A stretch of 9,589 bases of DNA from a virus (lineage: Duplodnaviria > Heunggongvirae > Uroviricota > Caudoviricetes): IMG/VR virus record IMGVR_UViG_2563366982_000003. One strand, 5' to 3'. Within the stretch, counting starts at the first letter, position 1. Each line of letters begins with the position of its first letter. The position numbers were made by a program, and so were the translations under genes. Positions 1-9,589 of this stretch are shown one piece after another. Below the pieces are notes generated by a model. It was not told the origin of the DNA and searched no databases. It saw only the letters and a program-made list of their open reading frames with translations.

Positions 1-131
1 TTCACCCATCGCGTCATTGTGGAAAGGCCGACATCCATAGCGCTGGCTGCATCTGCCACGGTGTAATTCTGGTCAACGACCAGTTGAGCGGATTCGCGTT
101 TAAACTCTGCGCTGAAATTTCTTTTTTTCAT
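1..131 (-). CDS. IS911-like transposase OrfA (InsN-like), N-terminal part, truncated by the window edge
   Basis: ATG at 131-129 (minus strand); translation [43 protein letters not shown]..., in a different frame from the annotated 100..798 ORF tail. Recognised from memory of IS911 orfA. Confidence 0.7.
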
Positions 132-203
132 TATGGCACCTGTGTTGTTCTGAGGTGAGCATATCACCTCTGTTCAGGTGGCCAAATTCAGTAAACCACT
201 TCA
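1..203 (-). mobile_element. IS3-family (IS911-like) insertion sequence, partial: left terminal repeat and 5' part of orfA; element continues beyond the window start
   Basis: Minus-strand sequence from 203 downward reads TGAAGTGGTTTACTGAATTTGGCCACCTGAACAGAGGTGATATGCTCACCTCAGAACAACACAGGTGCCATA-ATG, an IS3-family-type end (TG...) followed about 70 nt later by an ORF beginning [43 protein letters not shown], which I recognise as IS911 OrfA (HTH N-terminus). Boundary at 203 inferred from the TGAAGTGG terminus. Not checked against ISfinder. Confidence 0.75.
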
Positions 204-798
204 CACTGCACAGTGATGCTGTCCGGCGATCAATTATCTGGTGCAATACCACCTGCTCGTTTTTCGTCTCCCGCTGAACGCCTATTTCATCCAGGACCAG
301 CAAATCAACCCCGCAAAGCTCCTGTAAAAATTTTTCCCCGGATTTGCCGTTGTCGTAACTGTCATGCAACACGCTCATGACGTCAGACACGGTGACGATA
401 ATCACGCTGCGCCCCTTCACCATCAGCCGGTTGCCCATCGCCGCTGCAAGGTGATTTTTCCCGGTGCCGGTTTTACCGCTGAACACAAAATTCGTGCACC
501 CGGTCATCAGTTCGTCAGCTATGGATTTGGCCTGGCTCAGCGCGTATTTTTGCCCGTCGTTCTGCACCTGATAATTTGCAAACGAGCATTTGCTGTGCAG
601 AGGCTGGATGCCCGAACGATTCAGGATTTTTTCCACCCGCAACTGGCGATTCTGGCGGTTAATCTCCTCGCTGCGTTTTCGTCCTTCAGCAAGTTGCCAT
701 TCCCGCCACTCCTCCACCGTCCGGTACGGTGGAACCGACCCCTGTGGTGCAAGTCTGCGAATACGTTCAAGAACCCCAACTGCCGCAATGTTTTTCAT
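100..798 (-). CDS. DnaC-like replicative helicase loader (AAA+ ATPase); native reading frame ends near 204, the last ~35 codons (100-203) are IS-derived read-through, so the gene is 3'-truncated by the IS911-like insertion
   Basis: 232-aa ORF with Walker A ([15 protein letters not shown]) and Walker B (DLLVLDEIG) and a DnaC-like layout (...[17 protein letters not shown]...); SD-like GGGGGTG upstream of the ATG at 798; the C-terminal tail [15 protein letters not shown]... is encoded by the IS terminal repeat. DnaC homologs carry about 45 more residues after the DRR(S/T) motif. Confidence 0.75.
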
Positions 799-804
799 GA
801 CACG

Positions 805-1767
805 TCACCCCCTGAATCCCGGCGGTATTTCAGTGTCCGGTTCAGAAATGTGATTCACGCAACGCTGCGCAGGCGAACGCCCCAGGCGGATAACCAGTTC
901 ATCCCATTTTTCCCGGAGTTTTGCCGGACTCATGATGTTTTTTACCCAGAACGAATCCCGCTGGAGACGCCCAAACATTTCACAAATTTGTCTGTGAGTT
1001 CTGCCATCCAGCATCCGCATTGTGCGAACGTCATTGGCCCATGCTGTCCAGTTGGGTTCTTTCGGTCTAGTGATCTCGCCATCATAGCTGGCCGCCTGCT
1101 CGTAAAGACTCACGATTCGTCCCCAGATCCACTGTGCGCACACCAAATCTTCCTGACTTCCCCACTGGCGTTTTTTCGCACTGAACACAACCGCGTCAGG
1201 GTGTCGGGTTAAAAAATCCTGTTCAGCCGTCTGCGGGTCCGGTTGCGAAGCGTCCGGACAAGAAGATCTTTTATCTGACGGATCAGGTTTTAATACTGAC
1301 GGATCGGGGTCAATCATCGCCCCCCTAATCGGCAGTTTTTTATCAACAGTTGATCCATCAAAATTTGACGGGTCAACCGTTGAGGGGTCAATATTTGACG
1401 GGTCAACTGTTAACGGGTCATTTTTTGCCGGGCTAATTTTTCTTTTCGGTTTATATGACTCACGCGCCGCCGCCGCAGCTGCTTCGAGTTTTTCCACATT
1501 AAGCCGATAGATATTGCTTACATTACGCCCACCGACCTTACGCTCTTCCTTCGTCAGCCAGCCCTCTTTCGCCAGTTCTGCAATAGCCGATTTCACTGTG
1601 GATTCACTTCTTGCACCGATCTGACGCCGGATAGTTTCAATGGCAGGCCATGACACACCCTCGTCATTGCTGTAGTCTGCAAGACGGGCCATAACCGCCA
1701 CCCTGGATAAGATCATGCCGGTGAAGGCGCACCCTTCCCAGACAAGACCATGAAGCTTGCTGCTCAT
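805..1767 (-). CDS. Phage replication initiation protein (lambda O-like in function; N-terminal winged-HTH, internal iteron-encoded peptide repeats, C-terminal DnaT/YdaU-like domain)
   Basis: Long minus-strand ORF (track 805..1782, GTG start); I prefer the ATG at 1767, preceded by GGGGG. N-terminus LVWEGCAFTGMILSRVAVMARLADYSNDEGVSWPAIETIRRQIGARSESTVKSAIAELAKEGWL is typical of replication-initiator HTH domains. Internal DPSNIDPSTVDPSNFDGSTVD peptide repeat is encoded by DNA iterons. Stop lies 6 nt upstream of the dnaC-like ATG, the O-then-loader order of lambdoid replication modules. Confidence 0.7.
   Translation of the reverse strand: MSSKLHGLVWEGCAFTGMILSRVAVMARLADYSNDEGVSWPAIETIRRQIGARSESTVKSAIAELAKEGWLTKEERKVGGRNVSNIYRLNVEKLEAAAAAARESYKPKRKISPAKNDPLTVDPSNIDPSTVDPSNFDGSTVDKKLPIRGAMIDPDPSVLKPDPSDKRSSCPDASQPDPQTAEQDFLTRHPDAVVFSAKKRQWGSQEDLVCAQWIWGRIVSLYEQAASYDGEITRPKEPNWTAWANDVRTMRMLDGRTHRQICEMFGRLQRDSFWVKNIMSPAKLREKWDELVIRLGRSPAQRCVNHISEPDTEIPPGFRG
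1350..1439. repeat. Six tandem 15-bp iterons (consensus TTGAcGGGTCAAy-nn) inside the initiator gene: candidate phage origin of replication
   Basis: Plus-strand units: ttgatccatcaaaat / ttgacgggtcaaccg / ttgaggggtcaatat / ttgacgggtcaactg / ttaacgggtcatttt / ttgccgggctaattt (1350-1439). Each unit contains an internal dyad (TTGAC...GTCAA). Placement inside the initiator gene parallels the lambda ori iterons within O. Confidence 0.6.
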
Positions 1768-1789: not shown

Positions 1790-2215
1790 TTAGTGCATCA
1801 CCACAGCATTCCCTGCCGGGCCGCCGCGATTCATCTGGTCATACAAAACAACCGCTGACGCAACAAAATCATCGACATCCTTCACCAGCCGATCCCTCCG
1901 TTCGACGATCTCACGGTAATATTCAGAACTGTGGCTGCGCATACGGGCCACCAGCAAAGGCGGCATCGCCTTTTCGATCGCCGGTAACAGAGCCTGCATT
2001 TTTTCAACAGCATCAGGGGTGTCTTTATCCAGCCAACGGAAAATTTTCTGGGTATTACGGGCCAGGGCTTCCGGATGGCTGTCGTCATACAGTTCCGGGA
2101 ACGTCATTCCCAGCTCGAAATACGCTTTGGTAATTTTCGCAGCCGGTACTTTTTCGCCGTCCGGATGCGCCCAGACATTCATCGCCATGCGGATGTGTTC
2201 ATGCTTGATTTTCAT
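1790..2215 (-). CDS. ydaT: YdaT-family protein (CII-like regulator / putative toxin family of Rac-type prophages)
   Basis: 141-aa ORF beginning MKIKHEHI..., matching my memory of the YdaT family N-terminus and size (~140 aa); start ATG overlaps the upstream gene stop (ATGA at 2212-2215), implying translational coupling with the ydaS-like gene. Confidence 0.65.
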   Translation of the reverse strand: MKIKHEHIRMAMNVWAHPDGEKVPAAKITKAYFELGMTFPELYDDSHPEALARNTQKIFRWLDKDTPDAVEKMQALLPAIEKAMPPLLVARMRSHSSEYYREIVERRDRLVKDVDDFVASAVVLYDQMNRGGPAGNAVVMH

Positions 2216-2514
2216 GAATCAACTCCATCAGATAAGCATGTACTACAATCACCTTCAGCATGAACTACATGTGTTTGCCCCAAACGAATGCCGCTCGCAT
2301 ACTCAGGCCAAATAAGCTCCCAATCATGGGGTCGTAGCTCCGCCCTACTTACTTGGCCTTCCGTCGCAGATTCGATCATAAGGGCGCGGGTTGGAGATAT
2401 AGCTGTTCGTCCAGACGCCATTTGCGATAAGTAAGATGGCGATACACCAAGTCTGGCCGCGAATTTCTTAGCATCACCAACCCTTAATGATTTAATAAAC
2501 TCTTTTAATGTCAT
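2212..2514 (-). CDS. ydaS: YdaS-like Cro-type HTH DNA-binding protein (Cro analogue of the switch)
   Basis: 100-aa ORF; HTH signature KKFAARLGVSPSYLSQMASGRTAISPTRALMIESATEGQVSRAELRP; SD GAGGAAGG 4-12 nt upstream of the ATG at 2514; divergent from the regulator gene at 2612. Confidence 0.7.
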   Translation of the reverse strand: MTLKEFIKSLRVGDAKKFAARLGVSPSYLSQMASGRTAISPTRALMIESATEGQVSRAELRPHDWELIWPEYASGIRLGQTHVVHAEGDCSTCLSDGVDS

Positions 2515-2611
2515 ACCTTCCTCGGTTTAGTGTTTTTTTGCGAGTTTAGTGTTTAATAAACCATTAAGTCAAGTATTTGCTTGTTTAGTGATTACTAAAG
2601 ATAATTACCAC
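2515..2611. promoter_or_regulatory. Divergent promoter/operator region between ydaS-like (minus) and paaR2-like (plus): repeated heptamers GTTTAGT/GTTTAAT and palindromes, candidate -35/-10 elements for both directions
   Basis: GTTTAGT at 2525-2531, 2544-2550, 2583-2589; GTTTAAT at 2551-2557 with complement AATAAAC at 2555-2561; perfect dyad TTTAGT-GATT-ACTAAA at 2584-2599. Candidate plus-strand promoter: -35 TTGCTT (2577-2582), 17-bp spacer, -10 GATAAT (2600-2605). Candidate minus-strand promoter: -35 TTGACT (complement of 2567-2572), -10 TAAACT (complement of 2543-2548). A further TTTAATAAAC copy lies at 2491-2500, inside the first codons of ydaS. Confidence 0.55.
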
Positions 2612-2983
2612 ATGCAAAAAAAAGAAATTCGCCGTTTACGTCTCAAGGAGTGGTTTAAAGATAAAACTCTGCCACCCAAAGAGAAGAGCTACCTATCTCA
2701 ACTAATGAGTGGGAGAGCCTCGTTTGGAGAAAAGGCTGCCAGAAGAATAGAGCAAACATACGGGATGCCGGAAGGGTATCTGGATGCGGAATACGCAGAA
2801 CAACCGGGGGTTTCTCCACCACATGCAGGGTTAACGTCTAATCAACTGGAATTATTGCAGATTTTTTCAGCCTTCCCTGAGGATGAGCAACGCCAGATAA
2901 TCAGCGAGTTAAAGCAGAAAAAAGAATCAATGGAAGATCTCATAGCGAGATGGATTGCGGCGCAAAAATGCCGCCGCGCCTGA
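2612..2983 (+). CDS. paaR2: HTH (XRE/cI-type) transcriptional regulator of the three-component ParE toxin-antitoxin module; occupies the cI position of the prophage switch (PaaR2-like)
   Basis: 123-aa ORF from ATG 2612 (the track's 2549 start is a GTG lying inside the operator repeats, with no SD); HTH region LSQLMSGRASFGEKAARRIEQTYGMPEGYLD; no peptidase S24 domain; directly upstream of the antitoxin/toxin pair. Symbol from memory of the E. coli O157:H7 paaR2-paaA2-parE2 system; the paralogous paaR1 module cannot be excluded without alignment. Confidence 0.6.
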   Translation: MQKKEIRRLRLKEWFKDKTLPPKEKSYLSQLMSGRASFGEKAARRIEQTYGMPEGYLDAEYAEQPGVSPPHAGLTSNQLELLQIFSAFPEDEQRQIISELKQKKESMEDLIARWIAAQKCRRA

Positions 2984-3003
2984 GTTATAAAACCGGAGGA
3001 AAC

Positions 3004-3195
3004 ATGAATAGAGCCCTTTCACCAATGGTTTCTGAATTTGAAACCATTGAACAAGAAAACAGTTACAACGAATGGCTGCGTGCGAAAGTAGCAACGAGCC
3101 TTGCAGATCCGCGCCCAGCAATTCCCCATGACGAAGTTGAGCGCAGAATGGCAGAACGCTTTGCTAAGATGCGTAAGGAACGGAGCAAGCAGTAA
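3004..3195 (+). CDS. paaA2: Small antitoxin of a ParE-family toxin (PaaA2-like, 63 aa)
   Basis: 63-aa ORF MNRALSPMVSEFETIEQENSYNEWLRAKVATSLADPRPAIPHDEVERRMAERFAKMRKERSKQ from ATG 3004 with SD GGAGGA at 2995-3000; stop TAA at 3193-3195, 1 nt before the toxin ATG. Size and operon position match the PaaA2 antitoxin as I recall it from the literature. Confidence 0.7.
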   Translation: MNRALSPMVSEFETIEQENSYNEWLRAKVATSLADPRPAIPHDEVERRMAERFAKMRKERSKQ

Positions 3196-3196
3196 A

Positions 3197-3475
3197 ATGT
3201 TACCCGTGTTATGGCTTGAAAGCGCAGATACCGACCTAGATGATATAACTAGTTATATTGCTCGTTTCGACATAGATGCGGCTGAACGCTTATGGCAGCG
3301 ATTAAGGGGTTGTGTGCTGCCGTTATCCGAACATCCGTATTTATACCCACCAAGCGACAGAGTACCTGGCTTGCGTGAGATTGTAGCCCACCCTAACTAT
3401 ATAATTCTATACCGCGTAACAACATCAAGCGTTGAAGTAGTAAACGTGATCCACGCAAGACGCCAGTTTCCCTAA
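3197..3475 (+). CDS. parE2: ParE/RelE-superfamily toxin (ParE2-like)
   Basis: 92-aa ORF from ATG 3197: MLPVLWLESADTDLDDITSYIARFDIDAAERLWQRLRGCVLPLSEHPYLYPPSDRVPGLREIVAHPNYIILYRVTTSSVEVVNVIHARRQFP, with the characteristic ParE C-terminal pattern (...YRV...V.V..H.RR..). The track's 3101 start overlaps the antitoxin and is rejected. Confidence 0.8.
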   Translation: MLPVLWLESADTDLDDITSYIARFDIDAAERLWQRLRGCVLPLSEHPYLYPPSDRVPGLREIVAHPNYIILYRVTTSSVEVVNVIHARRQFP

Positions 3476-4791: not shown

Positions 4792-4848
4792 TTTCTGGTG
4801 ACGTTTGGCGGTATCAGTTTTACTCCGTGACTGCTCTGCCGCCCTTTT
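4792..4848 (+). ncRNA. dicF: DicF small regulatory RNA (ftsZ-targeting sRNA of Qin-type prophages), including its 3' stem and U-tract
   Basis: Sequence TTTCTGGTGACGTTTGGCGGTATCAGTTTTACTCCGTGACTGCTCUGCCGCCC + TTTTT matches my memory of the 53-nt DicF RNA; GGCGG (4807-4811) / CCGCC (4839-4843) pairing followed by a T-run gives a rho-independent 3' end; lies 180 nt upstream of the dicB ATG as in the Qin dicB operon. Exact 5' end not determinable from sequence. Confidence 0.75.
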
Positions 4849-5027: not shown

Positions 5028-5216
5028 ATGGAAACGTTATTACCAAACGTTAATACGTCTGAAGGTTGTTTTGATATTGGTGTTCTGCTCAGTAACCGGG
5101 AGTTTACTGAAGATGCCATTAATATGAGGAAATATGAGCCTTATCTGCTCAATGATAATTCCATACTTTCCCGAATTGCTCTTCTTGAACTTGGTATTTT
5201 CGGAGAGCGTCAATGA
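5028..5216 (+). CDS. dicB: Cell-division inhibitor DicB
   Basis: 62-aa ORF METLLPNVNTSEGCFDIGVLLSNREFTEDAINMRKYEPYLLNDNSILSRIALLELGIFGERQ; matches DicB in length and N-terminal sequence (M-TLLPNVNTSEGCF...) as recalled; SD GAGGA 5016-5020; follows DicF. Confidence 0.85.
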   Translation: METLLPNVNTSEGCFDIGVLLSNREFTEDAINMRKYEPYLLNDNSILSRIALLELGIFGERQ

Positions 5217-5401
5217 CTTCAGCATTTGCACTGATGATGACGGTTTTTCTTATAACGGGTGAATCACAGAATGTGATTACCGGAATTTATGCCAGTAAAG
5301 AATCCTGCCTCCAGGCAAGAGACGAGCAAAAAATTTCTGGTGAATGCCTCCCGGTAAAAAAAGTATCGCTGTACCTGAATAACGAAACACCGGCTGGATA
5401 A
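5213..5401 (+). CDS. ydfD: YdfD-like small membrane protein (Qin-type prophage lysis/toxicity protein)
   Basis: 62-aa ORF with start ATG overlapping the dicB stop (ATGA at 5213-5216); hydrophobic N-terminal segment FALMMTVFLITG, consistent with a single transmembrane helix; position matches ydfD after dicB. Confidence 0.7.
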   Translation: MTSAFALMMTVFLITGESQNVITGIYASKESCLQARDEQKISGECLPVKKVSLYLNNETPAG

Positions 5402-5493: not shown

Positions 5494-6055
5494 ATGAGCA
5501 CTGATAAAGAAGAATTTGCGCTATATTGCGAAGCAAAAAATGACAAAGTCAGAAAACGTCTGGGAATTAAAGGTGGTTTTTACTGGACTACAGCAAAAAA
5601 ATTATCTGTTGCCATCTCCCGCTGCATTACCGCAATGGATGACAACGATTATGATGAAGACGACTTTAAAAAACCCGTTCGCGTCCATTTACCCGTTGTG
5701 AATGACCTTCCACCTGAAGGCGTGTTTGATACCGAATTCTGCAACCGATACGAAAAAGGCGGGGAAGATGGCATTACAATGGTATTTATCGCGCCCTCTC
5801 CCTCCGTGCAGGAGAAACCAGCCAGTACTGACAATACCAACGTCAACGGCGAAGACATGACGGAGATTGAGGAGAATATGCTCCTGCCGGTTTCTGGTCA
5901 GGAGCTGCCCATTCGCTGGCTTGCGCAACACAGCAGCGAAAAACCAGTAACGCACGTTGCACGGGAAGAACTTCAGGCATTACATATAGCACGGGCGGAA
6001 GAACTGCCGGCTGTTACTGCCCTGGCCATTTCTCACAAAACAAAGCTGCTCGACC
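5494..6055 (+). pseudogene. RecE-like (exodeoxyribonuclease VIII family) prophage exonuclease gene, N-terminal fragment, interrupted by an IS21-family insertion
   Basis: ORF from ATG 5494 (SD GAGG 5482-5485); the track ORF 5494..6105 reads 50 nt into the IS terminal repeat before a stop. Deleting 6056-8193 (IS plus one repeat copy) rejoins this frame exactly to the frame open from 8193 to the window end (...HKTKLLD|[24 protein letters not shown]...). Assignment to the RecE family is from recalled similarity of the N-terminal region and the synteny after dicB/ydfD. Confidence 0.6.
6049..6055. repeat. Left copy of the 7-bp direct repeat (CTCGACC) flanking the IS21-family element: putative target-site duplication
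   Basis: CTCGACC at 6049-6055 immediately before the IS terminus TGTCA; identical heptamer at 8187-8193 immediately after the other terminus. Confidence 0.55.
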
Positions 6056-6115
6056 TGTCAACGCCACGATGTTTGACCGTTATTTGCCATTTTCATGCCC
6101 GCTAAGATACTTTCG

Positions 6116-8085
<1,970 letters not shown>

Positions 8086-8186
8086 GTTGATGTCCTTTCT
8101 GGTGTGAGAACCTTAAGGAAACAACATGTTGGGTGGAGCGGACAATCCAAATGGTGAATTACCGTCTTATATCACTGGCGCTGACA

Positions 8187-8193
8187 CTCGACC
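8187..8193. repeat. Right copy of the 7-bp direct repeat (CTCGACC) flanking the IS21-family element
   Basis: See left copy; only removal of the IS plus exactly 7 bp restores the exonuclease reading frame. Confidence 0.55.
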
Positions 8194-9589
8194 CGCTGGA
8201 GATTCGCGACCTTCACAAACTGGTACGCGACACTGACAAAGTTTTCCCTAATCCCGGTAATTCAGACCTGGGACTGATAACTGCTTTTTTCGAGGCATAC
8301 CTGGACGCTGATTACACTGATCGGGGTCTGCTGACAAAAGAGTGGATGAAAGGAAATCGTGTTTCGCGTATCACCCGTACGGCTTCCGGTGCAAATGCCG
8401 GTGGCGGGAACAAAACCGATCGCAATCCGAATTTAGTACACACCTTCGATGCGCTGGATGTGGAGATTGCAGCAGCCACACTTCCGATGGATTTTAATAT
8501 TTATGAAATTCCGGGCAGCGTTTATCGTCGCGCAAAAGAAATCGTCCTGAAAAAAGAAAGTCCGTTCAGGGAATGGTCCGCAGCACTTCGCGCAACCCCT
8601 GGTATCCTGGACTATTCCCGCGCAGCTATTTTTGCACTTATCCGAAGCGCCCACCCTGAGTTTTATCACTACCCGGGGCGCCTTCAGGGGTATATCAATG
8701 CCAACCTGACAGAAACTGATCACGAGAATCCCACAGCTGAAACGCTCATGGCTGCCCGGCATACACCGGAAAAAGATATCCTGGAAGAAATTAACGGCGG
8801 ACTGGCTGCTGAGTGCAAAACAGAAGAAGAAAAAAATGATGAAGATAACCCGCAACCATCTGGCGCAATGGCAGATGAACAGGCAACGGCTGAAACAATG
8901 GCAGCGGATACAGTTGAACATCATCAGGACCCGCAGCCGCTGGATGACAAGTCACAGGTAAAAGTTACCGCTGACGAAGTAAACAAAATTATGCAGGCAG
9001 CCAATATCAGCCAGCCTGACGCCGATAAGTTGCTTGCTGCCTCTCGCGGAGAATTTGTTGCAGGGATTAGCGACCCGAATGATCCGAAATGGGTAAAGGG
9101 GATTGAAACCCGCGATTCTGTAAACCAGAACCAGCAAGAATCGGAACAGAACGACCAGAAAGCGGAACAAAACAGCCCAAATGCGTTACAAAACGAGCCA
9201 GAAACGAAACAACCTGAACCAGTAGTGCAACAGGAACCGGAAAAGATCTGCACCGCCTGCGGTCAGACCGGCGGCGGCAACTGCCCTGATTGTGGCGCGG
9301 TGATGGGCGACGCAACATACCAGGAAACATTCGATGAAGAGAATCAGGTTGAAGTTCAGGAAAATGATCCGAAGGAAATGGAAGGCGCTGAACATCCACA
9401 CAAGGAGAATGCTGGCAGCGCTCAGGATCACGCCAGCGATAGTGAAACTGGCGAGACGGCAGATCCCTTAATTACGGTGAACGGTCATCATGTTATCACA
9501 TCCACCAGCAGGACGTGTGACCATCTAATGATCGACCTTGAAACCATGGGAAAAAATCCTGATGCCCCGATCATCTCAATAGGTGCAAT
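8187..9589 (+). pseudogene. RecE-like prophage exonuclease gene, C-terminal continuation after the IS21 insertion (open to the window end): Q/E-rich low-complexity linker, CxxC-x10-CxxC zinc-ribbon motif, start of a DEDD (DnaQ-like) 3'-5' exonuclease motif
   Basis: One frame is stop-free from 8091 to 9589 and is absent from the ORF track because it has no stop in the window. Translation ...[51 protein letters not shown]...; acidic/Gln-rich segment about 9100-9240; [16 protein letters not shown] at 9249-9296; [10 protein letters not shown] (Exo I-like D-x-E) at 9522-9551. All minus-strand ORFs listed for 8433-9431 are antisense to this frame. Confidence 0.6.

Follow-up and report, generated by a model that had tools for sequence, protein, structure and literature searches.

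The window analysed here (9,589 nt in all, taken as the reverse complement of L002 1-9589, that is, of scaffold KB732713.1 in assembly GCA_000351545.1) belongs to the early region of a lambda-like prophage located between potB and potC in E. coli. At one edge of this window, an insertion sequence (IS) interrupts the prophage gene for a DnaC-like helicase loader, and the insertion is a real, ordinary and very recent knock-out. We consider it very likely that a simple insertion of ISEc52 at codon 199 has inactivated the phage loader, and that it occurred recently, in one lineage, and before a second element, IS21, entered the exonuclease gene of the same prophage. Nothing about the element, the gene family, the architecture of the prophage or the phenomenon is new, and the case has little importance beyond annotation. 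For annotation, the resulting open reading frame (ORF) of 232 amino acids is best labelled an IS-disrupted pseudogene, and the replication competence of the prophage should not be assumed.

The ISEc52 end and the interrupted loader gene

The interrupting element occupies window positions 1-203 on the minus strand. A nucleotide search of complete E. coli genomes matched this segment to the left end of ISEc52 at every position (203/203, E 3e-101), and the matched copies carry the RefSeq/PGAP label 'IS3-like element ISEc52 family transposase'. The left end of the annotated IS911A of K-12 MG1655 is identical at 201 of the 203 positions. The first-pass annotation had called the element IS911-like, and rightly so: it is ISEc52, a near-twin of IS911. 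The terminal repeat (TGAAGTGGTTTACTGAATTTGGCCACC, 203 to 177 on the minus strand) is the same in ISEc52 and in K-12 IS911A, and it begins exactly where that annotation had put it. Inward from base 203, the segment comprises the left inverted repeat (starting TGAAGTGG), the leader and the first 43 codons of orfA. This 5' part of orfA (1-131, minus strand, ATG at 131-129) encodes the start of the transposase HTH protein, and its 43 codons match Pfam PF01527 (HTH_Tnp_1) with E 1.2e-6 and 29.1 bits (cut-off 24.1). This part of orfA runs in the same direction as the truncated loader gene, in another reading frame. The segment thus shows the 5'-TG terminal repeat and the left-end orfA HTH protein of IS3/IS911 elements, together with an identity above the 95% used for assignment to a named IS, an identity that covers 203 of the 1,250 nt of ISEc52. 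The outcome that would have counted against an IS, a segment with no match to any IS3-family end, is not what was found.

Elsewhere in the species this sequence is common. Of the 5,426 complete E. coli genomes, 4,077 have a match to at least 80% of the 203-nt segment, and the contexts of these matches are unrelated. In Nissle 1917, a complete copy (L004:1601-2850) measures 1,250 bp, starts with TGAAGTGG, ends with CCACTTCA and is flanked by a 3-bp target duplication, GTT; it includes orfB (DDE/rve catalytic domain, -1 frameshift) and the right inverted repeat. The window copy shares with other IS911/ISEc52 insertions in E. coli and Shigella genes its sequence (100% to ISEc52 and 99% to K-12 IS911A over 203 nt), the TGAAGTGG terminal repeat and an orfA HTH start about 70 nt from the left end. 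It differs from them in its site, since codon 199 of the loader gene of the potB/potC prophage is occupied in 0/5,426 complete E. coli genomes. It also differs in being assembled over the left 203 nt only. Complete copies generate a target duplication of 3 bp.

The interrupted gene is intact in ATCC 25922, where it encodes a protein of 248 amino acids (WP_000788950.1, 'ATP-binding protein'). Aligned to it, the window holds a chimeric ORF (100-798, minus strand) of 199 loader residues followed by 33 IS-encoded ones and a TAA at 102-100. The native part (204-798, minus strand) consists of codons 1-198 and one base of codon 199, the first; it matches the ATCC 25922 gene at 100% identity, and the protein is identical through residue 199. 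At the nucleotide level the match extends through base 203, and the first mismatch falls at base 202. This is the third base of codon 199, which reads GTC in the native gene and GTG in the window, both valine, with the TG coming from the IS. The IS-encoded tail (KWFTEF…QRRV and its stop, 100-201, minus strand) stands in place of native residues G200-K248, a loss of 49 residues or about the last fifth of the protein. The reading of the first-pass annotation, that an IS interrupts a DnaC-like frame and supplies the end of the ORF, therefore holds, with the native identity running to residue 199 and the tail DNA being 100% IS sequence. Two of its details needed correction: the break was put just after the DRRTAS motif, which is roughly right, but the native frame runs four codons further, to V199; and the foreign tail, estimated at about 35 codons, counts 33.

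The native gene is widespread, while the disrupted allele is not. The full-length loader gene is present in 1,409 of the 5,426 complete E. coli genomes, with 677 records at least 99% identical. None of these 5,426 genomes carries the loader/ISEc52 junction, and the left junction, sought as a 47-mer, was also absent from the GTDB representative genomes. The insertion is recent and belongs to one lineage only. By profile, the loader ORF passes NCBIfam PRK12377 (406.3 bits, cut-off 389; the profile is 248 positions long) and falls below the DnaC equivalog PRK07952 (229.3 bits, cut-off 357). It is thus a prophage paralog of DnaC and not the host loader.

Lost motifs and the fate of the replication module

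An alignment of the native 248-aa protein with E. coli DnaC (PDB 6QEL/6QEM) covers both from end to end at 49% identity (E 2.4e-74 for 6QEL), which allows the functional residues of DnaC to be placed on it. In DnaC these are K112 (Walker A), E170 (Walker B), N203 (sensor I), R216 (Arg-coupler), R220 (Arg-finger) and R237 (sensor II) (Puri et al. 2021, PMC8213410). Point mutants in each of the five canonical ATPase motifs abolished ATPase activity; at the Arg-coupler, the charge reversal R216D killed ATPase activity and R216A did not (PMC8213410). The Arg-finger is also required in vivo, according to earlier work cited in the same paper (PMC8213410).

In the alignment, the prophage counterparts of N203, R216, R220 and R237 are N204, R217, R221 and R238, all past the break at residue 199. 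N204, R221 and R238, present in the uninterrupted 248-aa homolog, are gone from the window allele and have IS-encoded residues in their place; that is, three of the five canonical tested ATPase residues fall in the lost segment. What is retained aligns to DnaC residues 2-198. It includes Walker A (GKTGTGKN) and Walker B (LVLDEIG) as well as the helicase-binding domain (DnaC 1-75) and the stretch in which the ssDNA-binding patch lies. The native protein thus shares with its paralogs, E. coli DnaC and the PRK12377 family, the equivalents of K112, E170, N203, R216, R220 and R237, although it stays under the DnaC equivalog cut-off (229 vs 357 bits), whereas the window allele is without the last four of these motifs. 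To speak of a removed C-terminus, as the first-pass annotation did, was correct but understated, as the AAA+ module loses four motifs with it: sensor I, the Arg-coupler, the Arg-finger and sensor II. In the AAA+ fold, strand beta-4 runs through the middle of the five-stranded sheet and bears sensor I at its tip. The loader fragment probably cannot fold a stable AAA+ ATPase core. Judged from its sequence, the window loader is almost certainly ATPase-dead, because the lost segment holds sensor I, the Arg-finger and sensor II, each of which is needed for the ATPase activity of DnaC.

The events that we propose are as follows. A 1,250-bp ISEc52 would have transposed into codon 199 of the prophage loader gene, with its left end and orfA co-oriented with the gene. 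Translation would then pass from the loader frame into the IS leader, continue for 33 codons and stop at the TAA. The predicted product would keep the N-terminal DnaB-binding domain, Walker A, Walker B and the ssDNA-binding patch, and would be without strand beta-4 with its sensor I (N204) and all that lies beyond it (R217, R221, R238). No composite AAA+ ATPase site would be possible, and the phage-encoded loader would be inactivated. We infer that the loader no longer works and that replication by the prophage itself is crippled.

Whether this amounts to a dead replication module, as the first-pass annotation had it, is a separate matter: the truncation of the loader stands, and the death of the module is plausible. 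The other parts of the module are in place. The replication initiator gene (805-1767, minus strand; HTH_36, O-like) lies directly upstream of the loader in the same operon and is intact and identical to the reference. The region has the organization of a lambdoid replication module, with the order YdaS-YdaT-initiator-loader, in which initiator and loader come after the cro/cII analogues, and with iterons within the initiator gene. A repeat scan located the iterons as an array with a 15-nt period (TTGACGGGTCAAC-like; five overlapping 30-nt copies) at 1343-1432, encoding a repetitive DPSNIDPSTVDPSNFDGSTVD peptide stretch. Within the initiator gene, window 1275-1432 also contains a 33-nt imperfect palindrome and a CTGACGGATC(A/G)GG pair. 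By its sequence, the array looks like a replication origin whose iterons are intact. As a separate observation, the last 21 codons of the initiator (805-867, minus strand) weakly match the extreme C-terminus of DnaT (NCBIfam NF002770, E 0.004), with residues 305-325 aligned to positions 159-179 of 179; this may reflect a shared interaction motif or chance.

A truncated loader could thus coexist with a living module, either because the initiator recruits host DnaC or because the N-terminal domain still loads DnaB. The intact initiator and iterons are in keeping with this, as is the 49% identity of the native protein to host DnaC along its whole length. Against it, lambdoid phages that encode their own loader normally require that loader. 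The product is also not a clean helicase-binding domain, as it carries a broken AAA+ fragment and 33 foreign residues. The biochemistry of DnaC bears on both sides: the isolated helicase-binding domain supported about half of the wild-type loading of DnaB and near-wild-type helicase activation in vitro, but full-length mutants with a defective ATPase activated DnaB more poorly than that domain alone, and an Arg-finger mutant fails in vivo (PMC8213410). On balance, we regard a living module as unlikely, at perhaps one chance in a handful, and hold to a loader knock-out that probably cripples the prophage's own replication.

Two further possible consequences of the chimeric ORF deserve mention. 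The 232-aa product may act as a dominant-negative trap for host DnaB when the PaaR2/YdaS switch flips on, a speculation to which we give very little credence. If it were true, the remnant would, under control of the switch, poison replication or serve as an abortive-infection effector, and would not be inert debris. In a related reading, early-right transcription would run into the co-oriented orfA and couple transposase expression to prophage derepression. The stop of the chimeric ORF (102-100) lies 29 nt downstream of the orfA ATG (131-129), in another frame, and ribosomes finishing the chimeric ORF therefore cross the orfA initiation region. We also considered polarity on the downstream nin/Q-like genes through an intrinsic terminator. 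A scan of the ISEc52 strand that is co-directional with the operon found no terminator-like sites, and the idea was dropped as unsupported. A literature search on the inducibility of the potB/potC prophage gave nothing usable.

Nature of the junction and order of the two insertions

The assembly places a limit on how much of the IS can be seen. In KB732713.1, window base 1 adjoins a run of 1,740 N, so the IS fragment at the window edge marks an assembly limit and not a truncated IS. The first-pass annotation had pointed to the sequence upstream of the window as the place to look for the remainder of the IS and for the 3' end of the gene that it displaced; the scaffold has the 1,740 N there and resumes past them, with neither piece assembled. 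Past the gap, the scaffold is collinear and keeps its orientation; it starts again 326 nt from the breakpoint, within the DUF1627 gene that follows in the prophage, and is 99.94% identical to ATCC 25922. A simple insertion predicts that 1,047 nt of IS, 3 nt of duplication and 326 nt of native DNA are missing, 1,376 nt in all, and the gap estimate of 1,740 exceeds this by about 360 nt. Simple insertion fits these data because the scaffold resumes collinearly 326 nt on and the gap is big enough for the IS and the native DNA. We thus infer a simple insertion with a GTG duplication. Its right junction would read …GTTGACCACTTCA|GTG|TCGGGATGTTAACAAACC… and be followed by the remaining 151 nt of the loader gene. 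On this side, no start codon precedes M201 within the IS in the native frame, so that a protein called there would not be specific to the junction.

An IS-mediated rearrangement (adjacent deletion or inversion) would instead have left the genome without the 3' end of the loader gene. The right junction falls in the scaffold gap. A scan of JGI metagenomes and GTDB genomes for the IS end, 2-5 nt and then TCGGGATGTTAAC was made, and the predicted sequence …CCACTTCA-GTG-TCGGGATG… was absent from the JGI metagenomes and the GTDB representative genomes. This and the departure of the gap estimate from expectation (1,740 vs 1,376 nt) lean towards a rearrangement. However, the scaffold picks up only 326 nt past the break, in the adjacent gene, with its orientation unchanged and at 99.94% identity to the reference, and the gap has room for the IS and the missing native DNA; moreover, a deletion would shrink the gap, not enlarge it. 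A rearrangement is therefore improbable in our view, and a simple insertion is retained.

A junction that ends in a multi-copy repeat next to a scaffold gap also raises the suspicion of an assembly chimera, made from reads joined at a repeated IS. Yet the exact 232-aa chimeric protein is found on just two contigs of a public collection, one from a genome assembly at NCBI and the other from a metagenome assembly at ENA. The latter contig (L003; ENA ERZ27246782, contig k141_19315) comes from a separate assembly and matches the window at 100% identity along 5,992 nt spanning the junction, and there are two samples for the NCBI contig. We thus see hardly any room for a chimera: the ISEc52 insertion is real and common to at least two sampled genomes. 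The ENA contig itself ends inside the IS, 36 nt past the chimeric ORF, as is usual for assemblies at repeats. The last alternative, that the IS tail is a natural C-terminal variant of the loader family, found no supporting evidence and is rejected as next to impossible, since the tail DNA is 100% ISEc52 sequence found in over 4,000 genomes in unrelated contexts, whereas all full-length copies end …GMLTN…MRVVK and the NCBIfam profile has a length of 248 positions. The comparison with full-length homologs that the first-pass annotation had proposed gives the same answer, the natural end being …GMLTNLNH…MRVVK in about 1,400 complete genomes and not the IS tail.

The second insertion lies deeper in the window. 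A complete IS21 of 2,131 bp (6056-8186, minus strand; istA 6913-8085, istB 6116-6913), 100% identical to annotated IS21, has ends TG…CA and is flanked by the 7-bp duplication CTCGACC (6049-8193 including duplications). All the features expected of IS21 are found, namely a length of about 2.1 kb, an istA with an rve domain, an istB with an AAA+ domain, TG…CA ends and a duplication of 4-8 bp. It splits a RecE-like exonuclease gene of 812 amino acids after codon 187 (5494-6055 and 8187-9589+, plus strand), the remainder running beyond the window end at 9589; the gene is intact in L003 and in L001, the ATCC 25922 prophage. The disruption of the exonuclease by IS21, asserted by the first-pass annotation, was thus borne out. 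The ENA contig carries the same loader::ISEc52 junction but an intact 812-aa exonuclease, and parsimony therefore places ISEc52 first and IS21 later.

Prophage setting and the question of selection

The counterpart of this locus in ATCC 25922 (L001, L005; NZ_CP009072.1, ~3,951,000-4,000,500) is an uninterrupted prophage of about 50 kb, likewise between potB and potC, with terminase, portal, capsid, tail, tail-fibre and lysis genes. In the window, the region upstream of the initiator gene contains ydaT (1790-2215, minus strand) and ydaS (2212-2514, minus strand) and, on the plus strand, the gene for a regulator in the PaaR2 position (2612-2983) and those for the PaaA2 antitoxin (3004-3195) and the ParE toxin (3197-3475), all identical to ATCC 25922. 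Further on, at 4793-4844 on the plus strand, lies a full-length DicF sRNA, which scores 76.7 bits with Rfam RF00039 (gathering score 48). It precedes dicB (5028-5216) and a gene for a DUF1482 protein (5213-5401). The layout at 1790-3475 is that of the CP-933P-type bistable switch with an embedded three-component toxin-antitoxin (TA) system (Jurenas et al. 2021, PMC8630535). Around the loader gene, the order of genes and their Pfam families are as in the CP-933P/Sp12-type early region (PMC8630535): PaaA2/ParE accompany a gene in the repressor position, YdaS/YdaT are divergent, the replication genes follow ydaT, and dicB belongs to the other arm. The closest relative, in contrast, is the ATCC 25922 prophage, complete at 50 kb and with all of its structural genes, while CP-933P is likened by gene order and families.

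The first-pass annotation had read the pattern of two broken and several intact genes as a cryptic prophage under selection for its addiction and immunity functions only. One part of this stands, as the TA and division-inhibitor switch is intact and identical to ATCC 25922. It lends no support to selection. Over the comparable 15,417 nt, the two prophages differ by 6 substitutions (four in the DUF1627 gene and two intergenic) and 0 indels. The other compared genes, including those for RusA and DUF968, the Q-like gene and hokD, show 0 substitutions and 0 indels, and are thus just as unchanged as the switch. Differential retention is invisible here because the divergence from ATCC 25922 is far too small, and the TA and division-inhibitor genes are intact because the insertions are recent, a state that carries no information on selection. 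The claim that both insertions make the prophage cryptic is likewise not supported on the exonuclease side: lytic growth does not normally depend on a RecE-type exonuclease, and the loss of this enzyme alone therefore does not make a prophage cryptic.

IS-mediated decay of lambdoid prophages is familiar from Rac, Qin and DLP12 of K-12 and from the O157 pool, with which the present case shares mobile elements in early genes. It differs from them in its very early stage: nothing has been deleted, and the divergence from an intact copy is 0.04%. In this sense the locus catches prophage decay at its first steps, ISEc52 and then IS21, in an order that can be resolved. At such a timescale, intact neighbouring genes are no evidence of selection.

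The four substitutions in DUF1627 cluster within 170 nt just past the gap (L002 11460-11628), which could reflect a small recombination patch or lower read quality at the contig edge. In the ATCC 25922 prophage itself, the DUF977 gene is already interrupted by an internal stop and the DUF6645 gene is frameshifted; this prophage also encodes IraM and hokD.
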